A program made the position numbers and the translations under genes. 64,000 nt of DNA from Escherichia coli (GTDB lineage Bacteria; Pseudomonadota; Gammaproteobacteria; Enterobacterales; Enterobacteriaceae): NCBI RefSeq assembly GCF_044324785.1, contig NZ_CP172127.1. One strand, written 5' to 3'. The notes below the pieces were generated by a model that was not told where the DNA came from, made no database searches, and worked only from the letters and a program-made list of their open reading frames with translations. Below, in pieces: positions 35,851 to 44,898 of this stretch. The first letter of the stretch is position 1, and each line of letters opens with the position of its first letter.

Positions 35851-36876
35851 TTGAGTTTGATAATCTCACTTACCTCCACGGTAAACCGCAAGGCACCGGG
35901 CTGCTGAAAGCCAATCCGGAAGACTTTGTGGTGGTGGAAGATTTGGGCTTTGAGCCTGATGGTGAAGGTGAGCATATTCTGGTTAGAATCCTCAAAAACG
36001 GCTGCAATACCCGTTTTGTGGCGGATGCACTGGCGAAATTCCTGAAAATTCATGCCCGTGAAGTCAGCTTCGCTGGGCAAAAAGACAAACATGCTGTTAC
36101 GGAACAGTGGTTATGCGCTCGCGTGCCGGGCAAGGAAATGCCCGATCTGAGCGCCTTTCAACTGGAAGGCTGCCAGGTGCTGGAGTATGCGCGGCACAAG
36201 CGCAAGCTGCGTTTAGGCGCGCTGAAAGGTAACGCCTTTACCCTGGTTCTGCGCGAAGTGAGCAATCGCGATGACGTTGAACAACGTCTGATCGATATTT
36301 GCGTAAAAGGTGTACCGAACTACTTCGGTGCCCAACGTTTTGGGATTGGCGGTAGCAACTTGCAGGGCGCGCTGCGCTGGGCGCAAACCAATACTCCGGT
36401 GCGCGATCGCAATAAACGGAGTTTTTGGTTGTCGGCAGCCCGCAGTGCGTTGTTTAATCAGATTGTTGCTGAGCGCCTCAAAAAAGCAGACGTTAATCAA
36501 GTTGTTGACGGCGATGCGCTACAATTAGCCGGACGTGGTAGCTGGTTTGTCGCAACCACCGAAGAACTGGCGGAATTACAGCGTCGCGTCAACGATAAAG
36601 AGCTGATGATAACCGCCGCATTGCCGGGCAGTGGTGAATGGGGAACTCAGCGTGAAGCGTTGGCATTCGAACAAACAGCTGTCGCCGAAGAAACTGAATT
36701 ACAAGCCTTACTGGTGCGCGAAAAAGTTGAAGCCGCGCGCAGAGCGATGCTGCTGTATCCGCAACAATTAAGCTGGAACTGGTGGGATGACGTCACCGTA
36801 GAAATCCGTTTCTGGCTTCCGGCGGGTAGTTTTGCAACCAGCGTTGTCAGGGAACTTATCAACACAACAGGTGATT

Positions 36877-36896
<20 letters not shown>
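35847..36896 (+). CDS. truD: tRNA pseudouridine(13) synthase
   Basis: 349-aa ORF; matches E. coli TruD. Confidence 0.9.
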
Positions 36897-38258
<1,362 letters not shown>

Positions 38259-38397
38259 AACATGAGGAAATACCTGGATTTTTCCTGGTTATTTTGCCGC
38301 AGGTCAGCGTATCGTGAACATCTTTTCCAGTGTTCAGTATGGTGCCTTGCACGGTAATTATGTCACTGGTTATTAACCAATTTTTCCTGGGGGATAA

Positions 38398-39537
38398 ATG
38401 AGCGCGGGAAGCCCAAAATTCACCGTTCGCCGCATTGCGGCTTTGTCACTGGTTTCGCTATGGCTGGCAGGCTGTTCTGACACTTCAAATCCACCGGCAC
38501 CGGTCAGCTCCGTTAATGGCAATGCGCCTGCAAATACCAATTCTGGTATGTTGATTACGCCGCCGCCGAAAATGGGGACGACGTCTACAGCGCAGCAACC
38601 GCAAATTCAGCCGGTACAGCAGCCACAAATTCAGGCTACTCAACAACCGCAAATCCAGCCAGTACAGCCAGTAGCTCAGCAGCCGGTACAGATGGAAAAC
38701 GGACGCATCGTCTACAACCGTCAGTATGGGAACATTCCGAAAGGCAGTTATAGCGGCAGTACCTATACAGTGAAAAAAGGCGACACACTTTTCTATATCG
38801 CCTGGATTACTGGCAACGATTTCCGTGACCTTGCTCAGCGCAACAATATTCAGGCACCATACGCGCTGAACGTCGGTCAGACCTTACAGGTGGGTAATGC
38901 TTCCGGTACGCCAATCACTGGCGGAAATGCCATTACCCAGGCCGATGCAGCAGAGCAAGGAGTTGTGATCAAGCCTGCACAAAATTCCACCGTTGCTGTT
39001 GCGTCGCAACCGACAATTACGTATTCTGAGTCTTCGGGTGAACAGAGTGCTAACAAAATGTTGCCGAACAACAAGCCAACTGCGACCACGGTCACAGCGC
39101 CTGTAACGGTACCAACAGCAAGCACAACCGAGCCGACTGTCAGCAGTACATCAACCAGTACGCCTATCTCTACCTGGCGCTGGCCGACTGAGGGTAAAGT
39201 GATCGAAACCTTTGGCGCTTCTGAGGGGGGCAACAAGGGGATTGATATCGCAGGCAGCAAAGGACAGGCAATTATCGCGACCGCAGATGGCCGCGTTGTT
39301 TATGCCGGTAACGCGCTGCGCGGCTACGGTAATCTGATTATCATCAAACATAATGATGATTACCTGAGTGCCTACGCCCATAACGACACAATGCTGGTCC
39401 GGGAACAACAAGAAGTGAAGGCGGGGCAAAAAATAGCAACCATGGGTAGCACCGGAACCAGTTCAACACGCTTGCATTTTGAAATTCGTTACAAGGGGAA
39501 ATCCGTAAACCCGCTGCGTTATTTGCCGCAGCGATAA
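38398..39537 (+). CDS. nlpD: Lipoprotein NlpD (LysM + M23 peptidase-like domain)
   Basis: 379 aa; lipobox LAGCS; Gln/Pro-rich repeats; LysM and C-terminal M23-like domain; rpoS promoters expected within this gene. Confidence 0.92.
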
Positions 39538-39599
39538 ATCGGCGGAACCAGGCTTTTGCTTGAATGTTCCGTCAAGGGATCACGGGTAGGAGCCACCTT

Positions 39600-40592
39600 A
39601 TGAGTCAGAATACGCTGAAAGTTCATGATTTAAATGAAGATGCGGAATTTGATGAGAACGGAGTTGAGGTTTTTGACGAAAAGGCCTTAGTAGAAGAGGA
39701 ACCCAGTGATAACGATTTGGCCGAAGAGGAACTGTTATCGCAGGGAGCCACACAGCGTGTGTTGGACGCGACTCAGCTTTACCTTGGTGAGATTGGTTAT
39801 TCACCACTGTTAACGGCCGAAGAAGAAGTTTATTTTGCGCGTCGCGCACTGCGTGGAGATGTTGCCTCCCGCCGCCGGATGATCGAGAGTAACTTGCGTC
39901 TGGTGGTAAAAATTGCCCGCCGTTATGGCAATCGTGGTCTGGCGTTGCTGGACCTTATCGAAGAGGGCAACCTGGGGCTGATCCGCGCGGTTGAGAAGTT
40001 TGACCCGGAACGTGGTTTCCGCTTCTCAACATACGCAACCTGGTGGATTCGCCAGACGATCGAACGGGCGATTATGAACCAAACCCGTACTATTCGTTTG
40101 CCTATTCACATCGTAAAGGAGCTGAACGTTTACCTGCGAACCGCACGCGAGTTGTCCCATAAACTGGACCACGAACCAAGTGCGGAAGAGATCGCAGAGC
40201 AACTGGATAAGCCAGTTGATGACGTCAGCCGTATGCTTCGTCTTAACGAGCGCATTACCTCGGTAGACACCCCGCTAGGTGGTGATTCCGAAAAAGCGTT
40301 GCTGGACATCCTGGCCGATGAAAAAGAGAACGGTCCGGAAGATACCACGCAAGATGACGATATGAAGCAGAGCATCGTCAAATGGCTGTTCGAGCTGAAC
40401 GCCAAACAGCGTGAAGTACTGGCACGTCGATTCGGTTTGCTGGGGTACGAAGCGGCAACACTGGAAGATGTAGGTCGTGAAATTGGCCTCACCCGTGAAC
40501 GTGTTCGCCAGATTCAGGTTGAAGGCCTGCGCCGTTTGCGCGAAATCCTGCAAACGCAGGGGCTGAATATCGAAGCGCTGTTCCGCGAGTAA
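39600..40592 (+). CDS. rpoS: RNA polymerase sigma factor sigma-S
   Basis: 330 aa from [14 protein letters not shown]; full length; codon 33 is GAG (Glu). Confidence 0.97.
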
Positions 40593-40607
40593 GTAAGCAT
40601 CTGTCAG

Positions 40608-40646
40608 AAAGGCCAGTCTCAAGCGAGGCTGGCCTTTTTCTTTTGG
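40608..40646 (+). terminator. rpoS intrinsic terminator
   Basis: aaaggccag...ctggccttt stem followed by tttttcttttgg. Confidence 0.7.
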
Positions 40647-40712
40647 TTGGGGAGTTGGTGTGTTTTGTCGCCTGGATAAGACACGTCAGTGTCCCACCCG
40701 GCAATCAGCATC

Positions 40713-41120
40713 CTATTTGCTCATCATCTTGCGCACCAGTTGCATAAACAGCTCTTGCTCTTCTCCACTCAAACGCCCCAAAAATTCCTCATCCACACTG
40801 TCACCAATCGGTATCGCCGCAGCAAGTACCTTTTCTCCTTCGGCAGTCAGCCAGACAAAGCGACGCCGCTTGTCAGCGGCGTCATGTTCACGTCTGACTA
40901 AGCCACGATTTTCCATTCTTGCCAACATTTCTGCCAGCGTTGCTTTGGTGCTGACGGCTGCTTCCATCAGTGCCACCTGTTCGATACCAGGTTTATCAGC
41001 AATGGCGCGCATCACCGCGTACTGTGGTTTGGTCAGATCAGGTAACTCGTGCTGCCAGCGAGCCGTATGCTGCTGAAAAAGCTGTCGTAACTGATGGAAC
41101 GCTTTATTTCGTAACGCCAT
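40713..41120 (-). CDS. MarR/SlyA-family transcriptional regulator
   Basis: 135-aa ORF; winged-helix MarR-like sequence; divergent from the UbiX/UbiD-type operon. Confidence 0.8.
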   Translation of the reverse strand: MALRNKAFHQLRQLFQQHTARWQHELPDLTKPQYAVMRAIADKPGIEQVALMEAAVSTKATLAEMLARMENRGLVRREHDAADKRRRFVWLTAEGEKVLAAAIPIGDSVDEEFLGRLSGEEQELFMQLVRKMMSK

Positions 41121-41234
41121 GTAAACTCCGGGCTAATTCTCTGTCGCTATCATAGCGGTTTTTCAGTGACGAAGAAGATGTTGTTACTTTTCAATCCTTG
41201 CCGCTGTGGAAATGAAGGAGTATGTTAATAATAA

Positions 41235-41250
41235 TGTTCGTATACGAACA
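41235..41250. promoter_or_regulatory. 16-bp perfect palindrome, candidate MarR-family operator
   Basis: tgttcgtatacgaaca, 16 bp upstream of the UbiX-like gene ATG in the divergent intergenic region. Confidence 0.45.
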
Positions 41251-41266
41251 ATTAAGAGAGTAAGCA

Positions 41267-41860
41267 ATGAAACTGATCGTCGGGATGACAGGGGCTACCG
41301 GTGCGCCTCTTGGTGTGGCATTACTGCAAGCGCTGCGGGAGATGCCGAATGTCGAGACTCATCTGGTGATGTCGAAGTGGGCGAAAACCACTATTGAACT
41401 GGAAACGCCTTACAGCGCTCGCGATGTTGCCGCCCTCGCAGACTTCAGCCATAACCCGGCGGATCAGGCGGCGACTATCTCTTCCGGCTCCTTTCGTACC
41501 GACGGCATGATCGTTATTCCATGCAGTATGAAAACGCTCGCCGGTATCCGCGCTGGTTACGCCGATGGTCTCGTAGGGCGCGCGGCGGACGTCGTGCTCA
41601 AAGAAGGCCGCAAACTGGTGCTGGTGCCGCGTGAAATGCCGCTTAGCACCATCCATCTCGAAAATATGCTCGCACTTTCGCGCATGGGCGTGGCGATGGT
41701 GCCGCCGATGCCTGCCTTTTATAACCATCCCGAAACGGTAGATGACATTGTCCACCATGTGGTAGCCCGCGTGCTGGATCAATTTGGCCTCGAACATCCT
41801 CACGCCAGGCGCTGGCAAGGGTTGCCGCAGGCCCGGAATTTTTCTCAGGAGAATGAATAA
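41267..41860 (+). CDS. UbiX/Pad1-family flavin prenyltransferase
   Basis: 197 aa; MKLIVGMTGATGAPLG flavoprotein N-terminus. Confidence 0.88.
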   Translation: MKLIVGMTGATGAPLGVALLQALREMPNVETHLVMSKWAKTTIELETPYSARDVAALADFSHNPADQAATISSGSFRTDGMIVIPCSMKTLAGIRAGYADGLVGRAADVVLKEGRKLVLVPREMPLSTIHLENMLALSRMGVAMVPPMPAFYNHPETVDDIVHHVVARVLDQFGLEHPHARRWQGLPQARNFSQENE

Positions 41861-43287
41861 TGGCATTTGATGATTTACGCAGCTTTTTACAGGCGCTTGA
41901 TGACCACGGCCAGTTACTGAAAATCAGCGAAGAGGTGAACGCGGAACCGGATCTGGCAGCCGCTGCCAATGCCACCGGGCGTATCGGCGATGGTGCACCG
42001 GCTCTGTGGTTTGACAATATTCGCGGCTTTACCGATGCCCGCGTGGCGATGAATACCATCGGTTCCTGGCAGAACCACGCGATTTCCCTCGGCCTGCCGC
42101 CAAACACCCCGGTTAAAAAACAGATTGATGAGTTTATCCGCCGCTGGGATAACTTCCCCATTACCCCGGAGCGCCGCGCCAATCCAGCCTGGGCGCAGAA
42201 CACCGTCGATGGCGACGAGATCAACCTGTTCGATATTCTGCCACTGTTTCGTTTAAACGACGGTGATGGCGGTTTCTATCTCGACAAAGCCTGCGTAGTT
42301 TCCCGCGATCCGCTCGACCCGGATAACTTCGGCAAGCAGAACGTCGGCATCTACCGCATGGAAGTGAAGGGCAAGCGTAAGCTCGGCCTGCAACCGGTGC
42401 CGATGCACGATATCGCCCTGCATCTGCATAAAGCAGAAGAGCGCGGTGAAGATCTGCCGATTGCCATCACCCTGGGTAACGATCCGATCATCACCCTGAT
42501 GGGGGCCACGCCGCTGAAATACGATCAGTCTGAGTACGAAATGGCGGGCGCGCTGCGCGAAAGCCCGTACCCGATCGCCACCGCCCCGCTGACCAGTTTT
42601 GATGTGCCGTGGGGCTCGGAAGTGATCCTCGAAGGGGTTATCGAAAGTCGTAAACGTGAGATTGAAGGGCCGTTCGGTGAGTTTACCGGCCACTACTCCG
42701 GCGGGCGTAACATGACCGTGGTGCGTATCGATAAAGTCTCTTACCGTACCAAACCGATTTTCGAATCGCTCTATCTTGGTATGCCGTGGACCGAAATCGA
42801 CTACCTGATGGGGCCTGCCACCTGCGTGCCGCTGTATCAACAACTGAAAGCCGAGTTCCCGGAAGTGCAGGCGGTAAACGCCATGTACACCCACGGCCTG
42901 TTGGCGATTATCTCCACCAAAAAACGCTACGGTGGCTTTGCCCGCGCGGTGGGCCTGCGTGCGATGACCACGCCGCACGGTCTGGGCTACGTGAAGATGG
43001 TGATTATGGTCGATGAAGACGTTGATCCGTTCAACCTGCCGCAGGTGATGTGGGCGCTCTCTTCGAAAGTGAACCCGGCAGGGGATTTAGTGCAGTTGCC
43101 GAATATGTCCGTGCTGGAACTCGACCCCGGCTCAAGCCCGGCCGGTATCACCGACAAGCTGATTATCGACGCTACCACGCCTGTCGCCCCGGACAACCGT
43201 GGTCACTACAGCCAGCCGGTGGTGGATTTACCGGAAACCAAAGCCTGGGCTGAAAAACTGACCGCTATGCTGGCCGCACGTCAATAA
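41860..43287 (+). CDS. UbiD-family (prFMN-dependent) aromatic acid decarboxylase
   Basis: 475-aa ORF; start overlaps the UbiX-like gene stop. Confidence 0.88.
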   Translation: MAFDDLRSFLQALDDHGQLLKISEEVNAEPDLAAAANATGRIGDGAPALWFDNIRGFTDARVAMNTIGSWQNHAISLGLPPNTPVKKQIDEFIRRWDNFPITPERRANPAWAQNTVDGDEINLFDILPLFRLNDGDGGFYLDKACVVSRDPLDPDNFGKQNVGIYRMEVKGKRKLGLQPVPMHDIALHLHKAEERGEDLPIAITLGNDPIITLMGATPLKYDQSEYEMAGALRESPYPIATAPLTSFDVPWGSEVILEGVIESRKREIEGPFGEFTGHYSGGRNMTVVRIDKVSYRTKPIFESLYLGMPWTEIDYLMGPATCVPLYQQLKAEFPEVQAVNAMYTHGLLAIISTKKRYGGFARAVGLRAMTTPHGLGYVKMVIMVDEDVDPFNLPQVMWALSSKVNPAGDLVQLPNMSVLELDPGSSPAGITDKLIIDATTPVAPDNRGHYSQPVVDLPETKAWAEKLTAMLAARQ

Positions 43288-43297
43288 GGAGAACAAG

Positions 43298-43534
43298 ATG
43301 ATTTGTCCACGTTGTGCCGATGAACAGATTGAAGTGATGGCGAAATCGCCGGTAAAAGATGTCTGGACGGTCTACCAGTGCCAGCATTGCCTCTATACCT
43401 GGCGCGATACCGAACCGCTGCGCCGCACCAGCCGCGAACATTATCCCGAAGCGTTCCGCATGACGCAGAAAGATATTGATGACGCGCCGATGGTGCCGAG
43501 CATCCCGCCGCTGCTGGCGGTAGATAAGCGTTAA
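43298..43534 (+). CDS. Small zinc-ribbon subunit associated with UbiD-type decarboxylases
   Basis: 78 aa; CPRC...CQHC motif; immediately downstream of the UbiD-like gene. Confidence 0.7.
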   Translation: MICPRCADEQIEVMAKSPVKDVWTVYQCQHCLYTWRDTEPLRRTSREHYPEAFRMTQKDIDDAPMVPSIPPLLAVDKR

Positions 43535-43542
43535 TAAAAAGT

Positions 43543-43570
43543 GCCGGGTAGTGGCTTTGCTTTACCCGGC
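43543..43570. terminator. Bidirectional terminator between the decarboxylase operon and pphB
   Basis: gccgggta...tacccggc 8-bp stem flanked by A-run upstream and T-rich downstream. Confidence 0.65.
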
Positions 43571-43574
43571 CTAA

Positions 43575-44237
43575 TTACTTTATTTTATAAAATGACAGCC
43601 GCCCGCTTTTCGGCGATCCGGTATCAATATAAATCTGGTTAGCGAACGTCTGAATGTTATCAAACATCATATGTCCAAATATAAAATAATCAGCGCCGTT
43701 TATTTGTTGTAACTCGCCATTAAGCGATTTCTGCACACGATCAACAGGCCAGAGTAATTCTCTCTCCGCTATTTCTTTGCCAAAGAGATATTCATTCCCC
43801 GGATAATCTGCATGTGCGATGACATATTTTATTATGTCGTTAGTGATTTCAATAATATGTGGAAGGTGATGAAATCTCAGCAACAGATCTATTGCTTCTT
43901 GTTGTTCCGTCTCATTTAATTCAAAGAACCAGTCGCCGCCGCTGGCAAGCCACATATTGCCATCGCCGGTCGCGAACGCATCCAACGCCATCGCTTCATG
44001 GTTGCCTTTAACCGATGTAAACCAGGGCTGGTTTAGCAGGCGCAGCACGTTAAGACTCTCCGGCCCACGATCAATATTATCGCCGACAGAAATAAGTAAG
44101 TCGGTTTCAGGGCAAAAAGAGAGTTGATGTAAGCGAGATTGTAATAATTTATAGTCACCATGAATATCACCAACGGCCCATATATGGCGATAGTGATGGG
44201 CATCAATTATTTGATAGCGAGTGGTAGACATTTGCAT
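43575..44237 (-). CDS. pphB: Serine/threonine protein phosphatase 2 (lambda-phosphatase-like)
   Basis: 220 aa; GDIHGD...GDNIDRG...GNHE metallophosphoesterase motifs. Confidence 0.85.
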   Translation of the reverse strand: MQMSTTRYQIIDAHHYRHIWAVGDIHGDYKLLQSRLHQLSFCPETDLLISVGDNIDRGPESLNVLRLLNQPWFTSVKGNHEAMALDAFATGDGNMWLASGGDWFFELNETEQQEAIDLLLRFHHLPHIIEITNDIIKYVIAHADYPGNEYLFGKEIAERELLWPVDRVQKSLNGELQQINGADYFIFGHMMFDNIQTFANQIYIDTGSPKSGRLSFYKIK

Positions 44238-44323
44238 AGACTCAAATTTATATGAATGTATTATTATATCAGACCAGGGTATTGAAGTCTCTGGAGTAAT
44301 AAATTACAAAAGGATGTTTTAAA

Positions 44324-44857
44324 ATGCTGAGATATTTCTATGCTTTCCTGTTAGTTTTTTGTTTTTTCACCTCTAATGTACACGCTGCATCTATAGAAGA
44401 AATAAATCGTTTCGAAAAACTTATAACCGAAGGTGATGTAATTGAGTGTACAGCGCATTTCAGTCAGACGGAGAATAACGAAACATACCAACTTAACCTT
44501 TTGGGAATAATGAAAGTTACTTACTCTGGGGAAAGTGAAAAACGCTACCACTCGACACAATATTATCGTTTAGACGGCTTCAAAATTCCCTTTATCCGTT
44601 ATGAGATGGATATCATCGCTACTCATGAAAAATCGAAGTTAAAAGAAGAGATTGTGCCTGACAGCGTACAGGTATTTTATCCTTCAGCACCAGAGCAAGA
44701 AGCGATATTAGCAGAAGCTGTACGGAAAACCGCACCAATGTCTATTGATAATGACGATATCACATTTACGACATTTCCTGATTACCAGGTGAAAGTGAAA
44801 TCCCCCTCTATGCCAGAAGCGATGACTCAGTATTGCCAGGTGCAAACGAAAAAGTAG
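44324..44857 (+). CDS. Hypothetical secreted protein (signal peptide), low-GC gene
   Basis: 177-aa ORF; N-terminal MLRYFYAFLLVFCFFTSNVHA-AS signal-peptide-like segment; visibly AT-rich; no family recognised. Confidence 0.6.
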   Translation: MLRYFYAFLLVFCFFTSNVHAASIEEINRFEKLITEGDVIECTAHFSQTENNETYQLNLLGIMKVTYSGESEKRYHSTQYYRLDGFKIPFIRYEMDIIATHEKSKLKEEIVPDSVQVFYPSAPEQEAILAEAVRKTAPMSIDNDDITFTTFPDYQVKVKSPSMPEAMTQYCQVQTKK

Positions 44858-44865
44858 TGAATAAA

Positions 44866-44888
44866 CCCGACGGCATTGTGCCGTCGGG
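44866..44888. terminator. Hairpin terminator between the secreted-protein ORF and mutS
   Basis: cccgacggc attgt gccgtcggg; on the minus strand followed by uuuauu. Confidence 0.55.
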
Positions 44889-44898
44889 CATGTCAGGT

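Follow-up and report, generated by a model that had tools for sequence, protein, structure and literature searches.

The closest described relative of the locus analysed here, a regulatory gene and a divergent three-gene operon located between rpoS and mutS in a 64,000-nucleotide stretch of Escherichia coli DNA (contig NZ_CP172127.1; the whole stretch is referred to as the window), is the HosA/HAD (hydroxyarylic acid decarboxylase) operon of E. coli UMN026 and enteropathogenic E. coli (EPEC), for which several HosA structures are available (PDB 8AGA, 8PQ4, and others). As summarized in a 2024 preprint (bioRxiv 10.1101/2024.04.24.590444), Roy and Ranjan (2016; Biochemistry 55:1120) reported that HosA represses the decarboxylase operon and itself, that 4-hydroxybenzoate induces the operon, and that the palindromic binding site is located downstream of the transcription start. 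HosA was shown to bind this site and to be dissociated from it by 4-hydroxybenzoate, with a KD of 4.74 μM for the ligand (Cao, 2018; PMC6261655); binding and release by 4-hydroxybenzoate were reported for the UMN026 protein. The enzyme was described as EcdBCD of E. coli O157:H7 (Lupa et al., 2005), whose genes have the same arrangement as here, abutting pphB without ygbI-N, with no difference in kind. The same three-gene B-C-D system is represented by VdcCD of Sedimentibacter hydroxybenzoicus (PDB 7AE4/7AE5), the host being a Firmicute, and by BsdBCD/VdcBCD of Bacillus subtilis. In the Sedimentibacter enzyme, subunit D is an obligatory allosteric activator of VdcC and binds zinc via Cys3, Cys6, Cys28, and Cys31 (Marshall et al., 2021; PMC8379154).

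Comparison with these systems led us to assign the locus, with a probability of roughly 93%, to the already characterised hosA gene and the adjoining three genes for 4-hydroxybenzoate/vanillate decarboxylase. The operator is the published one, and the mutS-rpoS region has an O157:H7-like arrangement. All parts of the hosA-BCD system are already known, from the regulator with its operator and effector to the enzyme family, the structures, and the substrates. The checks proposed in the initial annotation of the window, namely electrophoretic mobility shift assays (EMSA) with the palindrome, tests of phenolic acids as effectors, and decarboxylase assays, have essentially been published.

The hosA gene, its operator and the decarboxylase operon

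The initial annotation had described a MarR/SlyA-type regulator divergent from an operon of UbiX-like, UbiD-like, and zinc-ribbon genes with tightly coupled starts, followed by pphB. The list of open reading frames (ORFs) and the profile matches bear this out (Table 1). The genes for subunits B and C share a single base (TAATG), the 10-nt gap between C and D contains the sequence GGAG, and the pphB ORF follows on the minus strand. In the RefSeq annotation of strain N3, which has a near-identical locus, the four genes are listed as a MarR-family regulator and [quoted passage not shown]. The operon is known under the names ecdBCD, kpdBCD, and vdcBCD, and older names of the genes are pad1, yclC, and yclD. 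For comparison across genera, species-representative genomes were scanned once with the C protein, which returned 80 loci. In nearly all of them HosA orthologues (50–93% identity) are encoded divergently from B, or from C if B is absent, and the contiguous, co-oriented order B-C-D was found in 66.

The regulator has a winged-helix MarR domain (Pfam PF01047, E = 3.9e-12, residues 29–85) and is identical at 131 of 134 positions to the protein deposited as "Transcriptional regulator HosA" (PDB 8AGA) and in six further entries. The residues reported to contact 4-hydroxybenzoate in HosA (H9, R12, and D110, plus H18, W22, and Y34; bioRxiv 10.1101/2024.04.24.590444) are, together with K31, present in the window protein and invariant in 76 orthologues. 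From this near-identity it can be expected that the HosA allele of the window behaves as the HosA studied before. The next-closest solved MarR structure after the HosA entries is that of PcaV (PDB 4FHT, E = 5e-16), which belongs to the same family and is only a distant relative of HosA, with another ligand, operator, and pathway. PcaV follows the same logic as HosA, a phenolic acid freeing a MarR dimer from a palindromic operator beside catabolic genes; its ligand is protocatechuate and its host a Streptomyces species.

The intergenic region between hosA and B contains a perfect 16-bp palindrome, TGTTCGTATACGAACA, which the initial annotation had considered a good operator candidate. This proposal was well founded. 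The oligonucleotides used by Cao (2018; PMC6261655) for EMSA and biolayer interferometry (BLI) with HosA align to this intergenic region, and the site marked there is the 14-bp core of the palindrome, GTTCGTATACGAAC. As printed, the oligonucleotides contain one extra T inside the marked site, which was found in no genome aligned. The operator sequence was found only in the supplement of that study; a full-text literature search with the sequence matched no paper. The palindrome ends 16 nt, and its core 17 nt, before the start codon of B (ATG at 41267). In the orthologous intergenic regions a box of the form GTTCG-N4-CGAAC was present in 82 out of 82 cases, in most of them 14–21 nt before B, with diverged flanks.

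The two catalytic genes likewise point to the known system. B differs from PDB 1SBZ, which we take to be Pad1 of E. coli O157:H7, by a single exchange (Y179H; 196 of 197 residues identical), and C is 99% identical to the C subunit of the O157:H7 enzyme. The EPEC/UMN026 locus and that of the window share the 14-bp core, the divergent genes, the order B-C-D, the position beside rpoS, and the ligand-contact residues, and they show allelic differences only. No feature of the sequence was found that contradicts the assignment to the HosA/HAD system.

From these comparisons the following mechanism may be proposed. A dimer of HosA would bind to the 14-bp core, just past the predicted start of the operon and shortly before the start codon of B, and in the bound state block transcription. 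4-Hydroxybenzoate, bound at the dimer interface by D110 of one subunit and R12 and H9 of the other, would free HosA from the DNA. B, a flavin prenyltransferase of the UbiX type, would then provide prenylated FMN (prFMN), and C, which has the UbiD fold and would be activated by the tightly bound zinc-ribbon protein D, would reversibly decarboxylate 4-hydroxybenzoate to phenol and vanillate to guaiacol. HosA binding, release by 4-hydroxybenzoate, operon induction, and the substrates are taken over from published work on near-identical proteins, and the requirement for D from a relative of the C/D pair; the promoter hexamers and the precise spacing between the box and the start of transcription are predictions from the alignment.

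Some caveats apply to the assignment. The HosA allele carries the exchanges I52M, A119G, and N134S compared to the crystallised protein, and the operon DNA is only 95–98% identical to that of other E. coli strains, N3 excepted. A consensus promoter scan preferred a pair of hexamers (41207-41235) other than the one that we propose below. Finally, an effect of HosA on motility has been reported as well, and the regulator may thus have targets besides the operon.

Table 1. Features of the mutS-rpoS region of the window; coordinates refer to the 64,000-nucleotide stretch.
Feature	Coordinates	Strand	Remarks
rpoS	39600-40592	+	330 aa, left flank; in the ORF list with an earlier start, 39564; annotated as rpoS in strain N3
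Terminator-like hairpin of rpoS	40606-40639	+	stem of 15 pairs with a T run behind it (terminator scan)
Stretch of ~2.9 kb absent from K-12 MG1655	40639-43575		blastn against K-12, KO11FL, and O157:H7
hosA	40713-41120	-	MarR-family repressor, 135 aa; ORF list, Pfam MarR
hosA-B intergenic region	41121-41266		146 bp
Predicted -10 hexamer of hosA	41149-41154	-	TATGAT; inside the conserved element CTAT(C/G)ATAGC; no other block close to the hosA start is conserved
Predicted BCD promoter	41198-41226	+	TTGCCG (41198-41203), 17 nt, TATGTT (41221-41226); conserved: TTG of -35, TA of -10
HosA operator, 14-bp core	41236-41249		inside the perfect 16-bp palindrome (41235-41250)
Subunit B (EcdB/KpdB/Pad1)	41267-41860	+	UbiX-family flavin prenyltransferase
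Subunit C (EcdC/KpdC/YclC)	41860-43287	+	UbiD-family prFMN-dependent decarboxylase
Subunit D (EcdD/KpdD/YclD)	43298-43534	+	zinc-ribbon activator of C
Hairpin between convergent D and pphB	43543-43570		GCCGGGTA, 12 nt, TACCCGGC; read from the sequence
pphB	43575-44237	-	coordinates by ORF (N3 annotation: 43575-44231); serine/threonine phosphatase 2; right neighbour, outside the operon
orf177	44324-44857	+	177-aa ORF within a 661-bp stretch of low G+C content (36–44%), 44238-44898, between pphB and mutS
mutS	44899-47460	-	

Distribution and origin of the segment

Within E. coli the four genes were found in 2,380 of 5,426 complete genomes (44%), in line with the earlier statement that the region is polymorphic between lineages. 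In 799 of these carriers the genes directly abut pphB, as in the window and in O157:H7; this arrangement corresponds to "pattern I" of Ewers et al. (2014). In the remaining carriers, about two thirds, ygbN-ygbI follow D and both segments are located side by side, as in E. coli W/KO11FL. K-12 MG1655 has ygbI-N between pphB and rpoS and is without the four genes, as the initial annotation had stated. In blastn comparisons, homology of the window with K-12 ended at position 40638 and resumed at 43576 within pphB, a genome lacking the segment matched only positions 40593-40638, and homology with KO11FL extended to 43541, followed by ygbN (the "full" arrangement). A passage of PMC5491219 that cites Herbelin (2000) describes a "2.9 Kb sequence harboring hosA, pad1 and yclC". 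The view that ygbI-N represents alternative cargo at the same site has to be given up, since about two thirds of the carriers have both segments adjacent to each other. The window type and the K-12 type would instead be different deletion derivatives of the long form, judging from the arrangements compared. Herbelin and colleagues are said to have arrived at the same deletion conclusion in 2000.

The segment had been regarded as accessory. With respect to its patchy presence in E. coli this description holds; as an island of acquired DNA it does not. A recent horizontal acquisition is improbable in our view, although several observations speak in its favour. Besides the presence in only 44% of the complete genomes, the G+C content of BCD (55–58%) is somewhat above that of rpoS (~51%; 49–53% around the gene), and the identity to other E. 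coli strains is lower for the operon DNA (95–97%) than for rpoS (99%), which is consistent with local recombination. Moreover, a horizontal acquisition of hosA is stated directly in the 2024 preprint, where a transfer from Shigella was inferred from 97.6% identity to the protein of Shigella dysenteriae.

Against an island stands first of all the conservation of the gene order. In 45 of the 80 species loci, among them those of Salmonella, Citrobacter, Klebsiella, Enterobacter, and Kluyvera, hosA-BCD is bordered by both rpoS and mutS, and in 34 of 48 species mutS follows within 700 bp after D. This cross-genus synteny also argues against the transfer from Shigella proposed in the preprint and for vertical inheritance with lineage-specific loss. 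The search for hallmarks of mobility gave no tRNA gene in positions 30000-55000, no direct repeats flanking the segment at its borders beyond short chance matches, and no integrase or other mobility gene among the ORFs of the window. The G+C content of mutS (54–58%) is similar to that of BCD; clearly atypical is only the stretch comprising pphB and orf177 (36–44%). Finally, some E. coli genomes contain both segments, and the arrangements of K-12 and of the window fit two different deletions.

Because the order rpoS-hosA-BCD-mutS is shared across genera and mutS is located close behind D, hosA-BCD can be considered as basal content of this interval in Enterobacteriaceae. By the same comparison, pphB, ygbI-N, and orf177 appear to be lineage-specific additions, and K-12 would have lost ancestral DNA. 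Herbelin and co-workers reportedly came to the same view in 2000, against an island.

Two variations of the locus were seen in other genera. In Enterobacter, Lelliottia, Leclercia, and the Klebsiella oxytoca group (loci L014, L019, L020, L025, L027, L034, L045, L046, and L063), rpoS and hosA are separated by about 2.6 kb of extra DNA. In Salmonella (L029, L031) and Phytobacter (L018, L050, L052) hosA-BCD is inverted, with D facing rpoS.

The degree of identity to other E. coli strains changes sharply along the region. In comparison to K-12, O157:H7, and W, it was ~99% for nlpD/rpoS, ~96.4% for mutS, and ~93–94% for pphB (93% to the K-12 pphB DNA), and the operon genes, which K-12 does not have, were 94.8–97.8% identical to those of O157:H7 and W. 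At the protein level, RpoS is 100% identical (tblastn) to RpoS of N3, K-12, and O157. A near-identical allele of the operon was found only in strain N3 (99.7%; 99.8% across positions 36000-48000). The sharp shift in divergence is consistent with recombinational mosaicism around mutS, for which the locus is a classical marker.

To the right of the operon lies pphB, whose product matches NCBIfam PRK09968 with 458 bits (cutoff 332) and is annotated as pphB in N3. The inverted repeat located between the convergent genes D and pphB is a probable bidirectional terminator for both; the terminator scan gave no call at this position, which we attribute to the 12-nt loop, the limit of the scan being 8. 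Between pphB and mutS the window contains orf177, which gave no match in Pfam, NCBIfam, or PADLOC and whose product has an N-terminus resembling a signal peptide (MLRYFYAFLLVFCFFTSNVHA). The 661-bp stretch harbouring it was found in two of the 5,426 complete E. coli genomes (N3 and R32_14_1F), and homologues of the protein form three clusters among 5.8 billion proteins, one of them from Escherichia marmotae at 78% identity. At the same site, Escherichia sp. E1V33 encodes a protein with 93% identity, and homologues are confined to E. marmotae and E1V33. The DNA of the stretch is closer to E1V33 (96.4% identity) than the neighbouring genes pphB (88%) and mutS (91%), which suggests an exchange between lineages. 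In K-12 and O157 the spacer between pphB and mutS comprises only ~105 bp, and in the strain with locus L006 a gene for a tetratricopeptide repeat (TPR) protein is located there. The orf177 stretch is thus the genuinely rare part of the mutS-rpoS region of this strain.

Substrate class of the decarboxylase

The substrate had been called unknown in the initial annotation. This statement no longer stands, since EcdCD of E. coli O157:H7 is listed with 4-hydroxybenzoate and vanillate, and 4-hydroxybenzoate is the effector of HosA. A 2019 review (PMC6644310, Table 2, with reference to Lupa et al., 2005) gives 4-hydroxybenzoate as the best substrate of the recombinant enzyme and vanillate as accepted, both reactions being reversible. 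The compound numbers of that table were decoded from its headings, 49a heading the 4-hydroxybenzoate group and 57a being the sole substrate of the vanillate decarboxylase. Given the near-identity of the two enzymes, 4-hydroxybenzoate and vanillate are likely to be the substrates of the operon in the window as well.

The profile matches of the three subunits agree with this assignment. B matched the Pfam Flavoprotein family, NCBIfam NF041206 (VdcB) with 312 bits (cutoff 290), and TIGR00421 (UbiX family) with 246 bits. Its near-identical counterpart 1SBZ was formerly read as a decarboxylase; NCBIfam now labels the family as flavin prenyltransferase. C contains the N-terminal, core, and C-terminal UbiD domains of Pfam. 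D matched NCBIfam NF041205 (VdcD) with 121 bits (cutoff 30) and the ShdD/VdcD chain of the Sedimentibacter structure (7AE4_a). It has two CxxC motifs (Cys3/Cys6 and Cys28/Cys31), and these four cysteines are invariant in 84 sequences. Compared to the Sedimentibacter proteins, C shows ~60% identity, as estimated by eye, and D retains the zinc cysteines as well as R36 and E39. Residue 12 of D is a glutamate here, in contrast to ShVdcD, in which R12 forms a salt bridge, and the C-terminal tail of D is six residues longer. In C, the residues N161, R166, H183, E227, E269, and E274 are invariant in 84 sequences. As judged from the structures of Fdc1 and UbiD proteins, they presumably include metal and prFMN ligands and the E-R-E triad. 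For the assignment of the triad we used the "ERE motif" named in PMC8379154.

A different substrate class, such as phenylacrylic acids, protocatechuate (AroY-like), or gallate, or a function as a spare UbiX/UbiD pair for ubiquinone synthesis, is very unlikely. It could be argued for from older annotations of B as "Pad1, phenylacrylic acid decarboxylase" or "probable aromatic acid decarboxylase" and from the functional diversity of the UbiD family, related Klebsiella enzymes being listed in the same review with several hydroxybenzoates (PMC6644310). C, however, reached 789 bits with NCBIfam NF041204 (VdcC; cutoff 650) and only 175 bits with the UbiD equivalog of ubiquinone synthesis (cutoff 788), and its full-length match to Sedimentibacter VdcC (PDB 7AE4; E = 1.7e-160, 538 bits) contrasts with ~100 bits for the AroY and Fdc1 structures. 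The operon also includes a D subunit, which is specific to the Vdc/Ecd type. Furthermore, UbiX/Pad1 proteins are flavin prenyltransferases and not decarboxylases. UbiX and UbiD of E. coli K-12 belong to the same protein families and share the prFMN chemistry, but UbiD acts on a polyprenylated substrate without a D subunit, and the ubi genes are unlinked to hosA. The listed substrates of the O157:H7 enzyme and the response of the regulator to 4-hydroxybenzoate likewise favour the 4-hydroxybenzoate/vanillate decarboxylase.

In 13 of the 80 loci B was not detected beside C. One of these, L073, is truncated upstream, and in the other 12 hosA is located directly upstream of C (L044, L055, L056, L064, L066, L070, L075, L076, L078, L079, L083, and L085); L023 is truncated at the start of C. 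Clusters without B, in which hosA is divergent from C-D, occur in Superficieibacter, Pluralibacter, Cedecea, Chimaeribacter, one Mangrovibacter, Siccibacter, Rouxiella, some Rahnella, and Erwinia. In these organisms prFMN is presumably supplied by the housekeeping UbiX.

The HosA box and the divergent promoters

Perfection of the palindrome was dropped as evidence, since chance alone should yield about one perfect palindrome of 16 bp per window: two were found in the 64 kb, compared to 1.4 ± 1.2 in Markov-1 resampled sequences. The significance of the operator results from its position and its conservation in all 82 orthologous loci. Its 14-bp core is shared without any change by six E. coli lineages. 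At position 41235, the outer base, the window and O157:H7 have T and four of the six E. coli strains compared have C. As the outer T/A pair varies among strains, the 14-bp core is regarded as the functional unit and the 16-bp perfection as a strain feature. Both arms of the operon-proximal box are exact in 74 loci and one arm position is changed in eight; the variation is found almost exclusively in the central 4 nt. Elsewhere in the window there was no further exact HosA box, and the number of matches with one mismatch (4, with 2.3 expected) was within chance.

A function of the palindrome at the RNA level, as a hairpin in the 5′ untranslated region (UTR) affecting translation or stability or as a small terminator, is most improbable: the palindrome lies within the predicted 5′ UTR, could form a 6-bp stem with a 4-nt loop, and was flagged by the terminator scan on the minus strand, but the 5′ region folds with -7.4 kcal/mol (z = -0.41), a value reached or surpassed by 59 of 200 shuffled sequences, the near-invariant arms, variable centre, and lack of any compensatory arm change across the 82 loci are the signature of base-specific recognition by a protein, and HosA binds the DNA of the site in vitro (Cao, 2018). 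In an Rfam scan of positions 38000-48500 only a weak chance match was obtained, RF00489 at the rpoS terminator (26 bits; gathering score 50).

The alignment of the hosA-B intergenic regions spans 18 genera and contains, besides the HosA box, only two other conserved blocks. The first one comprises the hexamers TTGCCG and TATGTT (Table 1), which are, on the basis of their conservation, predicted to form the promoter of the BCD operon. Transcription from this promoter would therefore start near position 41233, which places the box at about +3 to +16. A start just before the box would agree with the published location of the HosA site downstream of the transcription start. The pair TGGAAA-17-AATAAT (41207-41235) preferred by the promoter scan was rejected because its hexamers, unlike TTGCCG and TATGTT, are not conserved across the genera.

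The second block, CTAT(C/G)ATAGC, probably holds the -10 region of the hosA promoter; no convincing match to a -35 region was found for it. The block is part of a near-palindrome, GCTATCATAGC (41143-41159), located 22–32 bp upstream of the hosA start codon, whose core TAT(C/G)ATA is conserved in the 18 genera. Being symmetric, the near-palindrome may alternatively be recognised by another factor.

A second, distal HosA-like box, typically GATCG-N4-CGAAC and ~56 bp upstream of the proximal one, was observed in 27 of the 82 loci (L007, L008, L011, L014, L019, L024, L026-L028, L032, L034, L037, L042, L043, L045, L046, L049, L053, L055, and others). The distance is ~56 bp in Enterobacter, Leclercia, Lelliottia, Kluyvera, and Pseudocitrobacter and ~70 bp in Pantoea, Mixta, Chimaeribacter, and Vibrio. 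With at most one mismatch, no distal box was found in E. coli, Salmonella, Citrobacter, and most Klebsiella, where the homologous position looks decayed. We tentatively suggest, as a combined proposal that we hold to be somewhat less probable than its negation, that the ancestral control involved two HosA boxes, the distal one of which decayed in Escherichia, Salmonella, and Citrobacter, and that hosA-BCD was the ancestral filling of the rpoS-mutS interval, ygbI-N and pphB being the true additions. If the former is true, E. coli would run both divergent promoters from a single operator, and the autoregulation of hosA would differ between genera.

For the annotation of the window it follows that the four genes are to be named hosA and ecdB/C/D (vdcBCD) rather than "function unknown". 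HosA and its 14-bp site are already in use as a 4-hydroxybenzoate biosensor. What the present analysis contributes beyond the known system are modest additions: the invariance of the operator across genera, the evidence for an ancestral cluster at this site, the invariant ligand residues, and the second box in some genera. With the operon, many enteric bacteria can turn 4-hydroxybenzoate and vanillate, whose sources are plant phenolics, products of paraben hydrolysis, and metabolites of tyrosine, into phenol and guaiacol, a conversion of relevance for phenol production in the gut and for tolerance to phenolic acids.

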